A stretch of 64,000 nucleotides of DNA, taken from the NCBI GenBank assembly GCA_046339535.1, contig JBKDUK010000416.1:26834-90833 (forward strand). The letters run 5' to 3'. The first letter of the stretch is position 1, and each line of letters starts with the position of its first letter. The DNA comes from Planctomycetaceae bacterium (GTDB lineage Bacteria; Planctomycetota; Planctomycetia; Planctomycetales; Planctomycetaceae). Position numbers and translations under genes: made by a program. The notes under the pieces were generated by a model that ran no database searches, had not been told where the DNA came from, and worked only from the letters and a program-made list of their open reading frames with translations. This document shows, piece by piece, positions 6,962 through 36,836 of the stretch.

Positions 6962-6996
6962 CAGGCCCGGTGGAAGTTGAACTTCCACCGGGCCTG
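6962..6996. terminator. perfect 17-bp inverted repeat (CAGGCCCGGTGGAAGTT g AACTTCCACCGGGCCTG) between convergent genes
   Basis: Seen directly in the sequence. Located between the stop of ORF 6567..6869 (+) and the stop of the permease-DtxR fusion gene (-, 7035). Confidence 0.5.
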
Positions 6997-7034: not shown

Positions 7035-8708
7035 TCAGCCTTCCAATTCGACAATCAACAAATCGGCCAACGGGTGGGGAATGACAAGCTGACGGCTGTT
7101 GGCGAAGCAGACCGTCCAGGTCTCCTGTTGGATGTCCCGGTCTGTGACCTGCAACCTTCCCCCCAGCTCCAGGCTTAATCCCGCAATGCGCGCAGCCCCA
7201 GTCGGATGCGCGCCAGACGACGATTGCTCGGAGTTTGTCTCCAGGCCAACCAGAACTCCACGGTCGCCCACCCGCAACTGCGACAGGGGAAACCGCCCCG
7301 GCTGTCCGGGATCACTGGGGATCCGAGGAATCTGGGAACCATGCGGATCGGTTTCGGGATGACCGAGCACATCCTCCAGCCTGGCGAGCAATGCGTCATC
7401 CAGAAGGTGTTCAAGCTCCTCAGCCGAGGGATGAACGTGATCCAGCGGCAGCCCGACTTGTTGCACCAGATAGGCTTCCCAGAGACGATGCGCCCGATCG
7501 AGTCGGCGCGCCTCTTCCATCCCGCGCGGTGTCAGCCGTACCCCACGTGCACCGTCCCGCGTAATCCACCCTTTCCAACCCAGCTGCACCAACCAAAGTG
7601 TCACAGCCAGGCGAGAGCAGCCCAATTCTCCGGCCAGCTCATCGGGTCGAGAAGTCAAATCGGCTGAGCGGGACTGTGTTTTCAGCAGCAACCGCACCAG
7701 ATTCTCCTGGCGGGTTCGCAGCCGCAATCGACCGCGCCGCAATATTCTCCAAAATGCCCCCGATTCGGGGGCCCACAGAAAGGCAAGTCCAAACTGGGCG
7801 CAGGCCACCACCACCATCGTGGGTGCCGTGGTGACATTCAGCCAATCGGCAAGATGCAAGCCCACCACAGCGGAGACTCCCCCAGCGACAGAGGACCACC
7901 ACAACATCCCGGGAAGTCGTCGTGACATCAGGAATCCGGTCGCCGGAGGTGCGGTCAGCAATCCGACCACGAGGATCGCCCCAACCGAACTGAAGGCCCC
8001 CACGACGGTGGTTGCCAACGCCACCAGGAACGCCCCCTGCACCAGGGGAACCGAGAGCCCCATCGACCGGGCCAACTGAGGATCGAAACCTGTGACCAAC
8101 AGCGGGCGATAACAGGTCAGTAACAATCCCAACAACACCAGACAAACTCCCCCCCTCTGCCAGAGGGCCAGCGGAATTCCAAATCCGAACAGAAGGAACT
8201 TCTCTTCCAGGGGCACAAAATCGAGGTTGCCGTAGAGCGAGTGCTGGACGTCAATATGCAACCGCGGCACAAAGCTCGACAGCAGCACCACCCCCAGGGC
8301 GAACAACGTCGTGAAGACAATTCCTGTGGCGGCGTCGTTTTTGACTCGTGAGCCTCGCGACACCAACTGAATCATCAGAGCAGTCAAGACAGCGGTGAAG
8401 ACCGCCGCCAGTAACAACGTCCCGCTCCCCATGCTCCCGGTCCAGAGAACCGCGAGGACCAGCCCCAGCAGCACGGTATGACTCAGGGCATCCCCCAGCA
8501 GAGCCTGCCCCTGAAGAATCAGGAAACATCCCAGCCAGGAGCAAGAGAGGGAGACAAACAGACTCAGGGCGAGGATGCACAGCGTGTCATAACGTACGGT
8601 TTTGGACCAAAGCCCCTCCCGGGCACCGCCCAAGGCGGCCGCCAGCGAACTGCCGTAAGGGCCGGTCATCAGCGTCATCCCCTGCGCCAGCAACCAGTTT
8701 CCGAACAT
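7035..8708 (-). CDS. ABC-3 family metal (Mn/Zn/Fe) transporter permease fused to a C-terminal DtxR/MntR-family repressor (HTH + metal-binding/dimerisation + FeoA/SH3-like domain)
   Basis: 557 aa. Residues 1 to about 300 form a polytopic ABC-3 permease (LGDALSHTVLLG..., GAILVVGLLTAPPATGF). Residues from about 310 onward are a DtxR-like wHTH (ENLVRLLLKTQSRSADLTSRPDELAGELGCSRLAVT), then the metal-site block HRLWEAYL...HVHPSAEELEH...GHPETDPHGSQIP, then an FeoA-like tail (RVGDRGVLVGLE...GLSLELGGRLQV). Its start codon overlaps the stop of the next permease by 1 nt (8708/8709). Confidence 0.85.
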   Translation of the reverse strand: MFGNWLLAQGMTLMTGPYGSSLAAALGGAREGLWSKTVRYDTLCILALSLFVSLSCSWLGCFLILQGQALLGDALSHTVLLGLVLAVLWTGSMGSGTLLLAAVFTAVLTALMIQLVSRGSRVKNDAATGIVFTTLFALGVVLLSSFVPRLHIDVQHSLYGNLDFVPLEEKFLLFGFGIPLALWQRGGVCLVLLGLLLTCYRPLLVTGFDPQLARSMGLSVPLVQGAFLVALATTVVGAFSSVGAILVVGLLTAPPATGFLMSRRLPGMLWWSSVAGGVSAVVGLHLADWLNVTTAPTMVVVACAQFGLAFLWAPESGAFWRILRRGRLRLRTRQENLVRLLLKTQSRSADLTSRPDELAGELGCSRLAVTLWLVQLGWKGWITRDGARGVRLTPRGMEEARRLDRAHRLWEAYLVQQVGLPLDHVHPSAEELEHLLDDALLARLEDVLGHPETDPHGSQIPRIPSDPGQPGRFPLSQLRVGDRGVLVGLETNSEQSSSGAHPTGAARIAGLSLELGGRLQVTDRDIQQETWTVCFANSRQLVIPHPLADLLIVELEG

Positions 8709-9749
8709 TCAGGCCTCTCCTCCTGGCTGGTCCGTCACCACCGAGCTCCGCCAACGTCGCAGCAGAGCACGGAGGAGTCCGTAGCGCGGGGAGAACACCC
8801 ACGCCGCCAGAAACATCAACGCCAAAACCAGCACCACAGTCGGCCCCGTCGGAAGACTGGATGCCATTCGAAGAGGAGGCCATCCGAGGCCCAGAAGCCG
8901 ACTCCATCCCCCCAGCCAATTCCACCCCTGGACCAGTACCTCAGTGCTCAGGGAGCTTAGATTCAATCCTCCAAGGCCCCCCATGACTGCGACTGCGACC
9001 GCGATCCCCAACATCCGCGGCAGTCGATCGGTCAACAACAGGGCGGTCGCGGCAGGAGTGATCAGCAAGGCGGACAAGAGCACAACTCCCACGGCCTGAA
9101 TGGCAATCACAATTGCCATGGCGGTCAGCAACACCAGCAGGTAGTGGAGCCGCCGCACAGGCAACCCCAGCGCGCAGGCGAAACCCTCATCGAAACAAAA
9201 CACAGACCATTCCTTGAACAGCGACAGCACACACAGCACGATCATGGCCGTGACGCAGCCAATCAGCAGCAGGTCGACATCCCGCAGGGCGGCCGCCTGT
9301 CCGAAGAAGAACTGATTCAGACCTCCCTGTCCTCCTCGTGGATCGGACTGGATCCGTGACATCAACATCAATCCCGCACCGAAGAATCCCGAGAGCACCA
9401 ATCCCATCGCCACATCGGGTTTCAACCGGGTGCCGCGCTGGATCAGCGCAATCAACCCTCCGGCCACAAGAGCCGCCACAAGAGCTCCGGCGAACAGCCA
9501 GACGGGATGCTTGGTCCAGGTCACCATAAATCCCAGGCACAGGCCCGGCAGAACGGCATGCCCCAGGCTATCTCCCAACAACGACATCCGCCGGAGCACA
9601 ATCAGGCTGCCCAGCAATCCACAACTGATTCCCAGCAGCACCATTCCAACGGCCGCGGTTCGCACACTTCCATCCTGAAAACTCCAAAAGCGGAGCATCT
9701 CGGTCCCCAAAGAGGCCACGGATGGACAGTTCGCGGTGGGAGTGATCAT
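8709..9749 (-). CDS. ABC-3 family metal transporter permease (MntB/ZnuB/TroD-like)
   Basis: 346-aa polytopic membrane protein with ABC-3 blocks (LLGDSLGHAVLPG, LLITPAATALLLTDRL). Its stop overlaps the ATPase gene by 4 nt. Confidence 0.85.
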   Translation of the reverse strand: MITPTANCPSVASLGTEMLRFWSFQDGSVRTAAVGMVLLGISCGLLGSLIVLRRMSLLGDSLGHAVLPGLCLGFMVTWTKHPVWLFAGALVAALVAGGLIALIQRGTRLKPDVAMGLVLSGFFGAGLMLMSRIQSDPRGGQGGLNQFFFGQAAALRDVDLLLIGCVTAMIVLCVLSLFKEWSVFCFDEGFACALGLPVRRLHYLLVLLTAMAIVIAIQAVGVVLLSALLITPAATALLLTDRLPRMLGIAVAVAVMGGLGGLNLSSLSTEVLVQGWNWLGGWSRLLGLGWPPLRMASSLPTGPTVVLVLALMFLAAWVFSPRYGLLRALLRRWRSSVVTDQPGGEA

Positions 9750-10510
9750 CGCCGAATGACCGCCACCCGGTCGGCAGCTTCCGAGAGAATGGTCAGCCGC
9801 CCACCATAAGTCTGCTGCAGAAGCTCAGGGGTGAAGACCGAAGACGTTGGACCGCTCGCCACAAGCCTCATGTTCAACAGCAGAATCCGGTCGAAATACA
9901 CCGGAGCTGTCTGCAGATCGTGATGAACGACCACCACCGTACAGCCACGTTCCTTGAGTTGCCTCAACAGCCCCATGATGGCCGACTCGGTCGCAGCGTC
10001 GACCCCGACAAAGGGCTCATCCATGAAGTACACCCGGCTCTGTTGCGCCAGTGCCCGGGCAAGAAACACCCGCTGCCGCTCACCTCCCGAGAGATTGGAG
10101 ATCTGACGATTACGAAACGGCAACATGCCAACGTCTGCCAGGCATTGATCGGCAAGTTGACGTTCCGCCACCCCCGCGGACCGAAACCATCCCAGTCGGC
10201 CGTAAGTGCCCATCAGAACCACGTCCCGGACGGTGACGGGAAAGTCCCAGTCCACGCTTTCCCGCTGCGGAACATAGCCCACCGCCAAGCGTTGCCGGGC
10301 CAGCGGCTCACCAAAGAAACGCACCCAGCCACGATCGACCGGCAGCAATCCCAGGGCCGCCTTGATCAACGTGCTTTTGCCAGCACCGTTCGGACCAATC
10401 ACCCCCACCAGTTCGCCGGCAGGCAGCGAAACATCCACATTCCAGAGCACCGGCCGCTTGTCGTAGCTGACCGTCATGTCGTGGATTTCCACAGCCGGGC
10501 TGACGTTCAT
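9746..10510 (-). CDS. metal ABC transporter ATP-binding protein (MntA/ZnuC/TroB-like)
   Basis: 254 aa. Walker A GPNGAGKST, ABC signature LSGGERQR, Walker B VYFMDEPFVGVD, H-loop VVVVHHD. Confidence 0.9.
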   Translation of the reverse strand: MNVSPAVEIHDMTVSYDKRPVLWNVDVSLPAGELVGVIGPNGAGKSTLIKAALGLLPVDRGWVRFFGEPLARQRLAVGYVPQRESVDWDFPVTVRDVVLMGTYGRLGWFRSAGVAERQLADQCLADVGMLPFRNRQISNLSGGERQRVFLARALAQQSRVYFMDEPFVGVDAATESAIMGLLRQLKERGCTVVVVHHDLQTAPVYFDRILLLNMRLVASGPTSSVFTPELLQQTYGGRLTILSEAADRVAVIRR

Positions 10511-11361
10511 AAACGAGGCTCGCGAAGTGCATCGACAATCATGTCGACATTGTATCGGATCATGCCCCGATAGGTTCCCGCTGGCCCATCCGCAGCCCCC
10601 AGAGCGTCCGAATACAACTCAGAGCCGAGGCGAACACCAGAGTCCTGGGCCACCCGCTGGACCGCCGCGGGGGAGACACTCGACTCAGGAAAAATCGCCG
10701 GGACCTGGCGATCACGAATCAGATCCACACACTCGGCCAGTCGCCGCAGACCAGCCTCACTCTCGGTGCTGATCCCCTGGATTCCAAACACTTCAAACCC
10801 ATAGGCCCGGCCAAAGTACTGGAACGCATCATGACTGGTGATGAGGACCCGCCGTTCGGCAGGAACCTCGGCGACCCTTGTGCGGCAGTATTGATCGAGA
10901 ATCTCCAACTCCCCGAGATATTGGTCACCCCGGCGACGGAATCCCTCGGCTTCAGCAGGTGCCGCGGCAGCCAGGGTGTTGATGACGACCTCCGCCGCCA
11001 TTTTCCAGAGCCCCACATCAAACCACACATGGGGATCGGGTTGAGAGCCAGACTCAGCCCCCCCCAAGAGCCGGCCGGCGGGAATTGCCGAAGTGACCGC
11101 CACGACGGTTTTTTCGCGGGACAACGACTCGAATACTTCCACCAGCTTCCCTTCCAGGTGAAGTCCGTTGTAGAGCACCACATCGGCCTGCCGCAGCCGA
11201 CGCTGGTCACGCGTCGTCGGCTGGTAAAGATGGGGATCGACTCCCGGTCCCATCAGAACCGAAACTTCTCCGGCATCTCCCACAACAGCTTGTGCGATAT
11301 CGGCGATCATCCCCGTGGTGACCAGTACCGTGACTCCCGGTCCTTCCGAAGTGGGGTTCAC
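10507..11361 (-). CDS. metal ABC transporter substrate-binding protein (TroA/ZnuA/MntC cluster-9 family), mature domain only; its signal peptide lies upstream, separated by an in-frame TGA
   Basis: 284-aa ORF starting at GTG 11359-11361 directly with the mature domain (VTVLVTTGMIADIAQAVVGD...DPHLYQPT...DPHVWFD...HDAFQYFGRAYG). In the same frame, 11425..11383 encodes MRCCLILCLFVAGSG, followed by TGA at 11380-11382 and then GPDTAKV-NPTSEG... See findings. Confidence 0.8.
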   Translation of the reverse strand: MNPTSEGPGVTVLVTTGMIADIAQAVVGDAGEVSVLMGPGVDPHLYQPTTRDQRRLRQADVVLYNGLHLEGKLVEVFESLSREKTVVAVTSAIPAGRLLGGAESGSQPDPHVWFDVGLWKMAAEVVINTLAAAAPAEAEGFRRRGDQYLGELEILDQYCRTRVAEVPAERRVLITSHDAFQYFGRAYGFEVFGIQGISTESEAGLRRLAECVDLIRDRQVPAIFPESSVSPAAVQRVAQDSGVRLGSELYSDALGAADGPAGTYRGMIRYNVDMIVDALREPRL

Positions 11362-11567
11362 TTTCGCAGTATCCGGTCCTCAGCCTGATCCAGCCACGAA
11401 CAGGCAGAGAATCAGACAGCACCGCATTCGCCGGACGAGCCCGGATCGAAGTGGGCGTGGAATTGATTCATCAGGGGAAGATGTGCAACACTTCATGCTG
11501 CGATTCTCTCCCACCCAGCCCCACGTGTCAACTACACCCAAACATTTTTTTTGACTCCTCAAAATCT

Positions 11568-12314
11568 ATGGCTAGCCTGACCGTGGAGAACTACCTCAAG
11601 ACAATCCTCCAGCAATCCCTGGTCAGCGGTGGCGACCTCGTCACAACGGGGCAACTGGCAACTGCGTTGCGGGTCTCTCCCGGCACTGTCACCGCCATGC
11701 TGAAAACCTTATCCGAGGGGGGACTGGTGAAATACCGTCCGTATGAGGGTGTTACGCTCTCGCCAGCGGGACGCAAACTTGCCCTGAGGATGGTTCGCCG
11801 GCATCGTCTGCTCGAGAGCTTTCTGGTCCGAACTCTCAGCCTCACCTGGGATGAAGTGCACGAAGAGGCGGAAAACCTCGAACATGCGGTGAGTGACGTG
11901 TTGGTGGACCGAATCGATGATTTTCTCGGGCATCCGACCGTTGACCCGCATGGTGATCCGATTCCCGCCGCCGACGGCCTGATGCGTTGTCAGTTGCAGG
12001 AGGGAATCCCCATGACCGGGTGGAGCACGGACAGCCGCGTGCGTGTTGTCCGGGTGATCGACCAATCCTCCGATTTTCTGAGATACCTGGCCGAGCAAGG
12101 ATGCACGCTCGATACTGTTGCCGAAGTCAAGCAGAACTCACGCGAGGCGGGAATTGTCACTCTGAAGATCGGAGCCAACTCATTCTCACTGGGTTATCCC
12201 GCAGCCCACCAGATCCTGGCGGTCGCCTTCGATCCCGTGCGAGAATCGGCCAAAGGCAATCACGATCTGGAAGGAAAGCCCCAGAACGTTCGGCTGACCA
12301 CTCCCAGACGGTAG
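11568..12314 (+). CDS. DtxR/MntR-family metal-dependent transcriptional regulator with C-terminal FeoA/SH3-like domain (Mn-type metal site)
   Basis: ORF 11451..12314 trimmed to MASLTVENYLKTILQ... (248 aa). It has an HTH, then RRHRLLESFL...WDEVHEEAENLEH...GHPTVDPHGDPIP, where Glu replaces the Cys102-equivalent as in Mn-specific MntR-like members. An FeoA-like tail VRVVRVIDQ...GIVTLKIG follows. It is divergent from the metal ABC operon. Confidence 0.85.
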   Translation: MASLTVENYLKTILQQSLVSGGDLVTTGQLATALRVSPGTVTAMLKTLSEGGLVKYRPYEGVTLSPAGRKLALRMVRRHRLLESFLVRTLSLTWDEVHEEAENLEHAVSDVLVDRIDDFLGHPTVDPHGDPIPAADGLMRCQLQEGIPMTGWSTDSRVRVVRVIDQSSDFLRYLAEQGCTLDTVAEVKQNSREAGIVTLKIGANSFSLGYPAAHQILAVAFDPVRESAKGNHDLEGKPQNVRLTTPRR

Positions 12315-12345: not shown

Positions 12346-12382
12346 GAAAAAAACTCCCGGTGACAGGACATGTCACCGGGAG
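12346..12382. terminator. bidirectional rho-independent terminator: A7-CTCCCGGTGACA-ggaca-TGTCACCGGGAG
   Basis: Perfect 12-bp stem seen directly. The T7 run follows the stem on the minus-strand transcript, where it terminates amtB. It lies between the convergent DtxR-like gene (+) and amtB (-). Confidence 0.6.
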
Positions 12383-12412
12383 TTGCAGATTGCCGCGCTG
12401 GGTAGATCGAGC

Positions 12413-14089
12413 TTACTTCACCATGAAATCCGGGTAGCCGACAGTTCCCATCTCAGGCATATCCAGCCCGCCAACTTCATCCTCCTTCGAGACCCGAATC
12501 GGAGTGATGAGGTTGCTGATCTTGAACCACACCCAGCCCATGACGAATCCAAACAGGGCAACGGTAACACACGACAGGATCTGGGCAAACAATTGGGAGG
12601 CATCACCGAAGAAAAGTCCCCGGACGCCATCGGACCCGTATTTTTCCACGAACTCCGGACGCACGACACCGTTCCAGCCATGGCCATACTTTCCATTGGC
12701 GAACAGCCCCAGAGCCAGTGTTCCCCACAGTCCGTTGGCTCCATGCACCGAAACGGCTCCCACAGGGTCATCAAGACCAAACCGGTCCCAGAAGAAGACA
12801 CTCAATACCACCAGAACGCCCCCGACCGCGCCGATCAGCAAGGCAGCCCAACTGTCGATGAACGCACAGGGAGCGGTGACGGCCACCAGGCCCGCCAGCA
12901 TGCCATTGCAGATCATGGACGGATCAGGCTTCAGCCCGGTCATCATCAGATACACCATGCAGGAGATCGCCCCACCGACGCTCCCCAACATCGTGTTGAC
13001 GACCACTGTCGACATTCGCAGATCGGTTCCGGAAAGGGTGGATCCTGAGTTGAAGGCAAACCAGCCGAAAGCCAGGATGAACGTACCGGAAATCACGAAG
13101 GGAAGATTGTGCCCGGGAATCGCCTGGGGACGCCCATTCACAAATTTGCCAATGCGGGGACCGATGATCAATCCACCGGCCAGAGCAATCGCTCCGCCCA
13201 TCGCATGCACGACACTGGAGCCGGCAAAGTCAACGACACCGTGACCGAAGCCCCAGTTGAGTCCCGATTGAGCCAGCCATCCGCCGCCCCAAACCCAGTT
13301 GGCGAACAGACAGTAGGGAAGGGCCACCCACAGCGAGAAGAGACAGAAATTTTTCCACGCCCACCGCTCCGCCATGGTCCCGGTTGGAATGGTGGCTGTC
13401 GTGTCCATGAAGACCATCATGAAGAAAAACAGAGTCATGATCCCCACGTCATCCATCCCGCTCAGACAGAACCCCTTGGTTCCGAACAGGCCGTAAGCCT
13501 TTTCCCCAATGGTGAGGGCGAAACCGGAATTGAGCAGAGACGTTCCTGGGCCCATCGGTGAATACCACCCGGGAGCGACCGGAGCGTTGAACCAGTTCCC
13601 CCACCCCAAGGCGAATCCGTAGACGTAAAACGCCAGACAACCCAGGGGATAAACCATGAGATTCATGGCAAATGTATGAGCCGAATTCTTGGCCCGACAC
13701 AGCCCTCCTTCAACCAGAGCAAAGCCCGTTTGCATGAACATCACTAGGGCCCCGCACAGCAGGATCCACAACGTGTTGATCGAGAACATGTTGTGGGCAA
13801 TGCGGTCGTACAAATCAGCCGGAGACTTCTGGGCCGGATTATCGTCCCCCACAGGACCTGCCGAAGGTGCGATCCAGTAGCCCGAACTGGCCCCCACCGG
13901 ATCAGGCCAGAGTGGTTCCTCTGGCTTGGGGCTCACTCCCGTCATGTAAGGGGGAAGCGTCACGGCAGGAGCAGCAGCGGGAGGACTCGCTTCCGAGGCT
14001 CCCTCCTGTGCCACCAGCGGGCCGTTCCATAGAAACAAAACTCCCCACAGGGCACAGACACGCGACAGTCCTAGCCAGCGATGACTCAT
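12413..14089 (-). CDS. amtB: ammonium transporter (Amt/MEP family) with N-terminal signal peptide and about 100-aa Pro/Ala-rich extension
   Basis: ORF 12413..14353 trimmed to MSHRWLGLSRVCALWGVLFLWNGPLVAQE (signal). The Amt core runs from MFSINTLWILLCGALVMFMQTGFALVEGGL onward, with typical DFAGSSVVH and NGMLAGLVAVTAPC blocks. No glnK/PII gene is adjacent. Confidence 0.85.
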   Translation of the reverse strand: MSHRWLGLSRVCALWGVLFLWNGPLVAQEGASEASPPAAAPAVTLPPYMTGVSPKPEEPLWPDPVGASSGYWIAPSAGPVGDDNPAQKSPADLYDRIAHNMFSINTLWILLCGALVMFMQTGFALVEGGLCRAKNSAHTFAMNLMVYPLGCLAFYVYGFALGWGNWFNAPVAPGWYSPMGPGTSLLNSGFALTIGEKAYGLFGTKGFCLSGMDDVGIMTLFFFMMVFMDTTATIPTGTMAERWAWKNFCLFSLWVALPYCLFANWVWGGGWLAQSGLNWGFGHGVVDFAGSSVVHAMGGAIALAGGLIIGPRIGKFVNGRPQAIPGHNLPFVISGTFILAFGWFAFNSGSTLSGTDLRMSTVVVNTMLGSVGGAISCMVYLMMTGLKPDPSMICNGMLAGLVAVTAPCAFIDSWAALLIGAVGGVLVVLSVFFWDRFGLDDPVGAVSVHGANGLWGTLALGLFANGKYGHGWNGVVRPEFVEKYGSDGVRGLFFGDASQLFAQILSCVTVALFGFVMGWVWFKISNLITPIRVSKEDEVGGLDMPEMGTVGYPDFMVK

Positions 14090-14639
14090 GATCCGAGGAT
14101 GCTCTCGTCGAGGAACTGCCAAACTCGCGGGAGACATTTCCCAAACAGCGCGGACAAATTCAGTTGGGCCGTTGAAGCTGCAAGGCGAGTTGCGTTCCAA
14201 AGTCCAGAAATTCCCCGAAAACCCGATCGAGCCTATCGCAAGAGCCCAAAATTTCCGCAGATTGAAACTCTGGAAAGACCTCGCCTGGAGAAACCTGCCG
14301 AACCGAATTCTGAAACAGCCTGCGGAAGGAATAGGCAAATCCTGCTGACACATTAAACAACTGCTGACTTTTCAGACACGATCAGACCCGACAGAGGGCA
14401 CAGCCAGGCTTCTCCCGAGGGGCGAATCGTGAACAGGAAGCGTTCCGCTCTGACCCAGCCGGAAACGAATCGGAGGCAAAGGACGGGCACCGAGCCGATC
14501 CGCGATCTTGCGCAAGTCCAGCAGGAACACGTCCTGGGCGAATCGGCCTCGAGCACTCCTCCACCAAGACTTTTCCCCGGTCGGTCGGTAATTTATGGCA
14601 TAGGGCCGGGTTCCGGCTGACTCATCAAGAGACGATCCC

Positions 14640-36172: not shown

Positions 36173-36836
36173 AGTCTCCGGGAAACTCTGGGGTTCGACC
36201 CGGGTGGTAGCGTTTCGCAGCCGTTCCCGTCCCAGCAATTCGGGGTGTTCGGGAGCACAATGAATCCGGCGACCTGCCCCTCTGCCCCAGAGTCCAGGCC
36301 CGGAATGCATGCCCAACCACCACAGACAAATGGAGTTACGACAAATCAAAACAAATTGATCCACAAAATCGCGGGCTGTCTTGGTAAAATCTGGAGAGCA
36401 GCCGAGTCCCGGAGCTGAATCCGGGAGCGGGGGACCCAACGAATTCTCCCTTGGGGAGAGTTCTGGGGCGAAGATTGGCCACCAGGCGGGGGGAGAAATC
36501 CGCGCCAGAGGCCAGTCCGGGTGTCATTCAAGCCCGAGCCCGTCAGCTAACCTCGCAGGCTCGAACCACCATGGTGGTGGTTCAGATTGAATGGGCATTT
36601 CGTCTGCAATTCTCCACGACGCAGTGCCCTGTTGGTCAGTTTTGGCTTCACAGCGGTTCTGCACTGCGTCGCGCCGGCTTCCCCGGCGCCGATCTGGTTT
36701 CGCACAGTTAGACCCCTGCGGGTGGTCTCTGGCGGCATTCCTCTGCTCCCTGGCACTGCGAGCTCCCTCCGGGCGTCTCGCTGCGCCCTGAGCCGGGGTT
36801 CGCCCAACTGCGGTACCGCAGTGTCGCCGGAAAGGC

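Follow-up and report, generated by a model that had tools for sequence, protein, structure and literature searches.

The closest described relative of the locus reported here is the permease YtgC of Chlamydia trachomatis (CT069/CTL0325), an ABC-3 permease that carries the DtxR-like regulator YtgR at its C-terminus (PMC5599777, PMC6504234). In the course of infection YtgR is cut from the permease, and its repression of ytgABCD and trpBA depends on metal (PMC5599777, PMC6504234, PMC7755916); orthologous permease-repressor fusions have been stated for 11 bacterial phyla (PMC5599777). Work on such fusions has been confined to Chlamydia, an organism that is difficult to manipulate genetically and that has no iron regulator other than the fused domain. 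We analysed a stretch of 64,000 nucleotides from a metagenome-assembled genome (MAG) of a Planctomycetaceae bacterium (assembly GCA_046339535.1, contig JBKDUK010000416.1, positions 26,834 to 90,833; hereafter the window). Its minus strand encodes a transporter operon of four genes, from which a regulator gene on the plus strand diverges. We are confident that this locus is a Tro/Ytg-type transition-metal ATP-binding cassette (ABC) importer operon in which the second permease is fused in frame to a DtxR-family module. The planctomycete version provides a natural 'separation of function' case, with a canonical free regulator and a conserved candidate operator alongside a fused module that strictly conserves its metal site but not its DNA-reading helix, and this conservation pattern raises a testable alternative function for that module.

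The fusion gene and its parts are as follows, all on the minus strand (AF2, AlphaFold2; HTH, helix-turn-helix; wHTH, winged HTH; aa, amino acids).

7035..8708, minus strand: troD::troR-like fusion gene, 557 aa plus stop (open reading frame, Pfam, NCBIfam, AF2 model, Foldseek)
7758..8708, minus strand: ABC-3 (PsaC/TroD-like) permease domain, aa 1-317 (Pfam, AF2, Foldseek)
7668..7757, minus strand: Arg-rich connecting helix running into DtxR helix 1, aa 318-347 (AF2 model, alignments)
7530..7667, minus strand: divergent wHTH domain, aa 348-393 (AF2 fold; sequence not conserved)
7317..7529, minus strand: DtxR metal-binding/dimerisation domain, aa 394-464 (PF02742, 83.6 bits)
7038..7316, minus strand: SH3/FeoA-like third domain, aa 465-557 (AF2 beta-strands; full-length three-domain matches)

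The open reading frame (ORF) at 7035..8708 is uninterrupted. It has an ABC-3 Pfam match at residues 46-310 (162.2 bits, cut-off 20.1) and a Fe_dep_repr_C (PF02742) match at residues 393-462 (83.6 bits, cut-off 27), and the NCBIfam MntR model aligns to residues 337-554. An AF2 model of the single chain, built on 115 homologues, reached a predicted local distance difference test score (pLDDT) of 88.5 and a predicted template modelling score (pTM) of 0.78; the latter, taken over the whole chain, suggests a defined mutual arrangement of permease and module. Foldseek matched the model to pneumococcal PsaC (7kyp; target template modelling score, TMt, 0.84; ~30% identity) and to the full-length three-domain regulators Mtb MntR, SloR, IdeR, ScaR, MtsR and DtxR over ~225 columns. 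A complete three-domain DtxR module had been proposed by a model that read the letters and their ORFs without database searches (the sequence-only reading); that proposal is borne out by the predicted fold and by PF02742, but not by the Pfam models of the other two domains. More specifically, PF01325, the family HTH model, matched none of 33 long-form fusions and missed the module of the window even at E<=10, and the FeoA model likewise had no match in the fusion protein at E<=10, with 21/33 orthologues matching. The wHTH and SH3-like domains of the fusion are visible only through structure prediction and the NCBIfam alignment.

The AF2 model gives the permease domain nine long helices, spread over residues 39-312, together with short coupling helices at ~200-215. 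PsaC itself has nine transmembrane (TM) helices and a channel coordination site formed by Asp46 and His50 (PMC8346216); the fused permease has the corresponding D73-x3-H77 channel site (GDALSH) in TM2, of which D73 and H77 are invariant in the 115 sequences. Residues 318-347 are modelled as one continuous helix that joins TM9 to DtxR helix 1 with no flexible linker, and its residues R324, R331, E335 and N336 are invariant or nearly so. E335-N336 aligns with E9-M10 of DtxR, with E7-D8 of MntR (Mtb MntR, 5zr4) and with the ENYLK motif of the free paralogue. The wHTH is predicted with pLDDT above 90 (helices 355-362 and 366-379, strands 382-384 and 390-392) and is followed by three dimerisation helices at 394-448 and a beta-rich region at 472-555. 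The model thus presents the fused module as an intact metal-binding DtxR fold that is rigidly continuous with TM9. With a PsaC-like nine-helix topology the chain ends on the same side as the coupling helices, and the junction is Arg-rich; the module is therefore predicted to lie in the cytoplasm, as the sequence-only reading had supposed.

A homologue search over 5.8 billion proteins returned 653 matches, and nearly all of the top 120 combine PF00950 with PF02742. These homologues form two length classes, one of ~550 aa (long forms) and one of ~430-440 aa (short forms). One NCBI protein is 100% identical to the fusion, but its annotation goes no further than 'metal ABC transporter permease [Planctomycetaceae bacterium]'; homologues in JGI are named with both COG functions. 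Genomes were scanned at one per GTDB species, and 596 of the 600 candidates listed (hence at least 596) encode relatives. The DtxR part was present, in a single ORF, in 80/80 loci kept from species genomes (at least 80 species). Hosts among the listed loci are Planctomycetota, Bacteroidota (Saprospiraceae), Sumerlaeota, Xenobia and others, and within Saprospiraceae they include the cultured Lewinella cohaerens and Flavilitoribacter nigricans. The 557-aa permease::DtxR fusion noticed from the letters alone is therefore real, given the uninterrupted frame, the Pfam and NCBIfam matches, the identical NCBI protein and the 80/80 loci. The accompanying premise that such an architecture is unusual fails, because YtgC-YtgR of Chlamydia is characterised, 11 phyla have been reported, and the present searches gave 653 matches and at least 80 species. 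The architecture, a YtgCR-type fusion in a Tro-type operon, is already known and common, and the locus is an uncharacterised variant of it.

Metal ligands were numbered by an offset of +328 taken from the DtxR alignments. With site 1 defined as H79, E83 and H98 and site 2 as C/E102, E105 and H106 (PMC2628430), the equivalents in the fusion are H407, E411 and H426 for site 1 and E430, E433 and H434 for site 2. H407, E411, H426, E433 and H434 are invariant in the 115 fused sequences and E430 is Glu in 99% of the 81 long-form sequences. Substitutions of E335 are rare, and at position 336 the long forms have N where the short forms have D.

The DNA-reading part of the module behaves differently. 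For comparison, the window offers a second DtxR-type protein encoded next door:

11568..12314, plus strand, divergent from the operon: stand-alone three-domain DtxR/MntR/TroR-like regulator, 248 aa (Pfam PF01325, PF02742 and FeoA)

This free paralogue had been noticed from the letters and is confirmed by the Pfam HTH, dimerisation and FeoA matches. Its start at 11568 is supported by the fact that all orthologues begin M[AP]SLTVENYLK. It shares 39% identity with the fused module over the HTH and the dimerisation domain, and both proteins have Glu at the position of DtxR Cys102 (E102 in the free regulator, E430 in the fusion), as the sequence-only reading had it. In the same 9 genomes, mean pairwise identity of the HTH is 0.72 for the free regulator and 0.27 for the fused module, whereas that of the dimerisation/metal domain is 0.83 and 0.72, respectively; the permease of the fusions from these genomes stands at 0.58. 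Among 60 Saprospiraceae fusions the corresponding values are 0.70 for the permease, 0.28 for the HTH and 0.67 for the dimerisation/metal domain. PF02742 matches 33/33 long-form fusions, and column entropy in the fused HTH reaches 2-3.4 bits. DtxR P39, T40, Q43, R47 and R50, which we take to be the DNA-contact positions in DtxR-operator structures, correspond in the fusion to L, A, L, Q and W, and other family members vary at them. Between genomes, the recognition helix of the fused module differs at almost every position; that of the free regulator, VSPGTVT[AS]MLKTL, is invariant across the 9 genomes. As judged from these alignments, selection on the fused module is strong at the metal and dimerisation residues and weak at the DNA-reading surface. 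The net charge of the fused HTH region, 0 to +4, did not separate the competing models discussed below. The fused HTH is also rich in Trp (1-4 residues, vs 0-1 in free regulators of the same genomes), and chlamydial YtgR has been described as tryptophan-rich (PMC7755916).

Two candidate control elements lie between the operon and the free regulator gene:

11549..11564, no strand: 16-bp palindrome TTTTGA-N4-TCAAAA, candidate operator (conservation)
11503..11531, minus strand: sigma-70-like promoter candidate for the operon, TTGACA-17-GAGAAT (10/12 matches)

The palindrome was found by a script with 6-bp arms; an inverted-repeat search of 11340..11620 at minimum length 8 had missed it. It occurs once in the window, with 0.17 occurrences expected by chance and at least one in 15/100 shuffles. 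It stands in the same place in 9/9 planctomycete loci (among the related loci L001-L011), in 7 of them exactly and in 2 with one mismatch, and the copy in L005 is the perfect 16-mer TTTTGATTAATCAAAA. The free regulator lies divergently upstream in 10 of the 11 related loci that retain the substrate-binding protein (SBP) gene and upstream sequence. The palindrome co-varies with nothing in the fused HTH and pairs more naturally with the free regulator, because the recognition helix of the latter is invariant across the same genomes and that of the fused module is not. Conservation thus points to the palindrome as the likely operator of the free DtxR paralogue, and no second conserved operator was found in the promoter region. 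The promoter candidate is weak alone, shuffles likewise giving one such site; its TTGAC box is conserved in 9 related loci, with the palindrome upstream of it. Rfam found no family, hence no metal riboswitch, in the operon leader. On the minus strand, 11441..11496 is identical at 55/56 nt between the window and L001, in a surrounding alignment of 86% identity; the segment could encode an N-terminal SBP extension (MKCCTSxPDESIPRPLRSG) or be a conserved 5'-untranslated element downstream of the predicted promoter.

The remaining genes of the operon complete a metal importer:

8709..9749, minus strand: permease 1, TroC-like, unfused, 346 aa (Pfam ABC-3, 207 bits)
9746..10510, minus strand: ABC ATPase, TroB/MntA-like, 254 aa (Pfam ABC_tran; NCBIfam MntA and AztA models)
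10507..11427, minus strand: TroA-type substrate-binding lipoprotein gene (Pfam ZnuA, 264.8 bits)
6962..6996, no strand: hairpin with a 16-bp stem just 3' of the fusion gene stop (sequence)

The gene order is SBP, ATPase, permease 1, permease 2::DtxR (troA-B-C-D::R). The genes for the cluster A-I SBP and the ABC ATPase thus directly precede those of the permeases on the same strand, although the SBP gene is interrupted by a TGA. Since the operon lies on the minus strand, the fused gene is its last gene and second permease, where the sequence-only reading had called it the first of both. The junctions of the four genes are 4, 4 and 0 nt (the last one TGA and ATG abutting), which corrects the overlaps of 1 or 4 nt described earlier. 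The hairpin likely marks the operon end. Permease 1 is 28% identical to the fused permease domain, carries GDSLGH at the Asp-x3-His channel motif and, compared at its tail with double-fused relatives, stops shortly past its own Arg-rich C-terminal helix. At residues ~262-300, preceding its last TM helix, it also has a Trp/Gly-rich insertion of ~30-40 residues (VLVQGWNWLGGWSRLLGLGWPPLRMASSLP) that is absent from the fused permease.

The metal transported is best described in general terms. The closest solved relative of the SBP is Treponema pallidum TroA (E 6.6e-70), and the protein keeps the motifs DPHLY, DPHVW, SHDAF and SDALG, which presumably carry the His3Asp ligands of TroA and not the His2GluAsp set of PsaA. 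In addition, E102 is found in TroR of T. denticola, a regulator that answers to Fe as well as to Mn (PMC2628430). The 'Mn-type' label proposed earlier is accordingly unsupported for the operon, and the Mn selectivity drawn from Glu102 is weak; Tro-type general transition-metal importer is the safer name as far as the sequence goes.

The SBP gene carries an in-frame TGA at 11382..11380, overlooked by the sequence-only reading, exactly at the lipobox +1 Cys codon (…CLFVAGSG*GPD…). It splits the signal-peptide codons (from ATG 11427, or 11496) from the mature part (ORF 10507..11361). L001, 89% identical, has TGC there, and the lipobox Cys is found in 11 relatives. Selenocysteine was considered for this codon and rejected in view of the Cys of the 11 relatives; lipidation at a lipobox needs a thiol. 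From these alignments the TGA is more likely a nonsense mutation, leaving a binding protein without signal peptide, or an error of the MAG.

Arrangements of the fusion vary among relatives. A free first permease with a fused second permease, as in the window, recurs in L001-L004 and L006. In L005 (6474..9578), L008-L012 and L014 (7821..10402) each of the two permeases bears a module, a short SH3-less one on the first and a long one containing the SH3-like domain on the second; these double-fused loci come from several Planctomycetota and one Xenobia, and a free regulator is often present too. The permease-1 module has Tyr or Phe at the H79 equivalent in L005, L009 and L011, and in L005 also Glu at the H98 equivalent. 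With these ligands replaced, the ancillary metal site of the permease-1 modules was probably lost in the three loci and the primary site kept. A lone single fused permease is usual in Saprospiraceae. The fused permease::DtxR gene of ~55 Saprospiraceae loci and L018 encodes ~495 aa and is usually without an adjacent SBP or ATPase gene; in L018 (Lewinella cohaerens DSM 23179) the fusion at 7956..9461 is flanked by glycosyltransferase and aminotransferase genes.

Our favoured reading, held tentatively and at somewhat less than probable, is that the fused module is a tethered cytoplasmic metal sensor that throttles its own transporter. The free regulator would control transcription of the operon by binding TTTTGA-N4-TCAAAA, and the fused module would stay attached at the cytoplasmic face as the metal sensor of the importer. 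Rising cytosolic metal would fill the sites formed by E335/N336 together with H407, E411, H426, E430, E433 and H434; the filled sites would shift the module and the helix continuing from TM9, and the importer would be slowed or locked (trans-inhibition). Coupling would run via the helix that bears E335/N336, and the wHTH fold would survive because it helps to build the metal sites, no longer reading specific DNA sequences. Double-fused pairs, or the lone fused permease of Saprospiraceae with two modules per transporter, would put a DtxR-type dimer under the transporter. We count in favour of this reading the contrast in conservation between HTH and metal domain, the lack of PF01325 matches (0/33), the conserved ligands and the linker-free continuous helix, as well as a palindrome that is kept where the free recognition helix is invariant and the fused one divergent.

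Several points weigh against it. Gating of a transporter by a DtxR domain has no precedent known to us. In the window a module is present on just one of the two permeases, and with one module per transporter there is therefore no DtxR-type dimer within one transporter here. The module keeps the wHTH fold at its usual length, together with an RRGW motif, and this region lacks acidic character, so that DNA binding by the fused module with lineage-specific operators is possible. The HTH evolves fast in Saprospiraceae too, where a free regulator may or may not be present. The TGA interrupts the SBP gene of this genome, so that the transporter system may be inactive in this organism. Finally, in the sole experiments on the architecture, those on Chlamydia YtgCR, the protein is cleaved and the domain set free binds DNA (PMC5599777, PMC6504234, PMC7755916).

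These experiments define the main rival explanation, which we judge unlikely though worth serious attention: the fusion would be a YtgR-type precursor that is cleaved near the permease/module junction, the released module dimerising, binding metal and repressing the operon or other genes, and the fusion keeping production of the regulator in step with the transporter. The precedent comes from the same Planctomycetes-Verrucomicrobia-Chlamydiae (PVC) superphylum (PMC5599777, PMC6504234, PMC7755916). The structure prediction yields, at high confidence, a complete DtxR fold including the wHTH; conservation extends to all metal ligands and to the dimerisation domain; and both the HTH net charge of 0 to +4 and its 1-4 Trp, as described for chlamydial YtgR, are in keeping with a released repressor. 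Two points speak against such a repressor: no other part of the module is as poorly conserved as its recognition helix (0.27), with PF01325 failing in 33/33, and 10/11 of the related loci that retain the SBP gene and upstream sequence already have a canonical free regulator, whose recognition helix is invariant and which has a palindrome to match; Chlamydia, by contrast, is without another DtxR-type regulator. The modelled helix from TM9 to helix 1 is continuous, with no flexible linker, and the promoter region has no second conserved operator. Cleavage of the YtgR type is thus a poor fit to the HTH data here, and the sensor of its own importer is preferred. Of the two mechanistic options raised by the sequence-only reading, a tethered or released regulator and a cytoplasmic gate both stay live, and the analogy to ToxR/CadC is not needed.

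A second alternative, which we rate as quite improbable, is that the tethered module pairs with the soluble paralogue or with the module of a second transporter, whereby free repressor would be held at the membrane or its activity coupled to transporter abundance (an anti-repressor or sequestration loop). Within the fused module, conservation is indeed highest in the dimerisation/metal domain (0.72), its identity to the free paralogue is 39% over HTH and dimerisation domain, one module per heterodimeric transporter makes an intra-transporter dimer impossible in this locus, and the free regulator co-occurs in 10/11 related loci with SBP gene and upstream sequence. The start of the dimerisation helix, however, differs systematically between fused (RAHRLWE) and free (RRHRLLE) proteins, and the double-fused and orphan single-fused relatives need no soluble partner. 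Effectively refuted by the conservation is a false fusion, in which a sequencing or assembly error merged troD and troR, or a non-functional relic module: the window does come from a MAG whose SBP gene has a probable error or nonsense codon, and treponemal troR directly follows troD as a separate gene (PMC2628430), but the ORF is single and in frame in 80/80 loci of different species and in more than 100 database proteins, and neither the junction (P314, G317, R324, E335) nor the ligands show more than minimal variation, which argues for purifying selection and not decay.

Extended to planctomycetes and Saprospiraceae, hundreds of species in all, the idea of a transporter-bound sensor is in our view possible and on the doubtful side. 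The fused DtxR module would there no longer be a transcription factor, its repressor fold having been re-used as an allosteric, membrane-tethered metal sensor that closes the importer carrying it once the cytosol has enough metal; the free paralogue would take care of transcription, and double-fused or homodimeric versions would form a DtxR-like dimer beneath the translocation pathway. If true, this would be a new post-translational route controlling metal import, with a repressor fold re-used as a regulatory domain of a transporter; if the module is instead cleaved and binds DNA, the YtgR mechanism would extend to free-living bacteria. Either way, the annotation 'metal ABC transporter permease' conceals a sensor domain.

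Elsewhere in the window, a c-di-AMP riboswitch (RF00379) at 36390..36576 on the plus strand is the sole Rfam match (61.4 bits vs a gathering score of 38), and no tRNA genes were found in the 64 kb. An ammonium transporter of 646 aa is encoded at 12413..14353 on the minus strand; its best Pfam stretch starts at residue 276, and the N-terminal extension of up to ~270 residues has little or no domain match. Its gene is followed by a hairpin and T-run terminator at 12352..12384.

Compared with known systems, the window fusion is closest to YtgC-YtgR, a likeness to CT069 drawn from published description and shared Pfam domains. Both systems have permease and DtxR-like module in one ORF within an SBP-ATPase-permease-permease metal-uptake operon, both conserve the metal-coordinating residues of DtxR, and both hosts belong to the PVC superphylum. 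They differ in that Chlamydia fuses the first, TroC-like permease and leaves YtgD free, whereas the window fuses the second permease. The module of the window also adds an SH3-like domain, the chlamydial protein of ~49 kDa having the size of the short SH3-less forms, and its HTH is highly divergent. Chlamydia is without another DtxR-type regulator (PMC6504234), and the window has a free paralogue next door with a conserved candidate operator. Cleavage and DNA binding have been shown for YtgR, whereas the window fusion is known from sequence and predicted structure.

The operon also resembles troABCD-troR of Treponema in its gene order, with the regulator coded directly after the second permease, and in its SBP, which is nearest to T. 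pallidum TroA; like both modules in the window, TroR of T. denticola combines E102 with an SH3-like domain (PMC2628430). In Treponema, however, troR is a separate gene and the operon contains no second regulator, whereas in the window troD and troR form one ORF and a free regulator is divergent. PsaBC of Streptococcus pneumoniae (7kyp) shares the nine-helix permease fold (TMt 0.84) and the Asp-x3-His channel site. It differs in that PsaC is a homodimer without a cytoplasmic C-terminal domain, the SBP (PsaA) is of the Mn type with His2GluAsp, and PsaR is a separate protein.

The soluble DtxR/MntR repressors (5zr4/5zr6, 6o5c MtsR, ScaR, SloR, IdeR, DtxR) have the same three-domain fold, ligand pattern and EN/ED helix-1 motif as the fused module. 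They are free cytosolic dimers with conserved recognition helices, whereas the module of the window is tethered and its HTH goes unrecognised by PF01325. The SH3-like C-terminal domain is present in DtxR and IdeR and is optional in the DtxR/MntR family. Ligand-sensing regulatory domains of ABC importers are known from the C2 domain of MetNI, ModBC-A of Methanosarcina and the regulatory domain of MalK. In these the sensor is fused to the ATPase subunit and does not have a transcription-factor fold, and cytosolic substrate trans-inhibits import. The window fusion would be like them only under the preferred reading as a transporter-bound sensor, in which cytosolic substrate binds a transporter-attached domain and inhibits import; it would differ in that its sensor sits on the membrane subunit and derives from a DtxR repressor.

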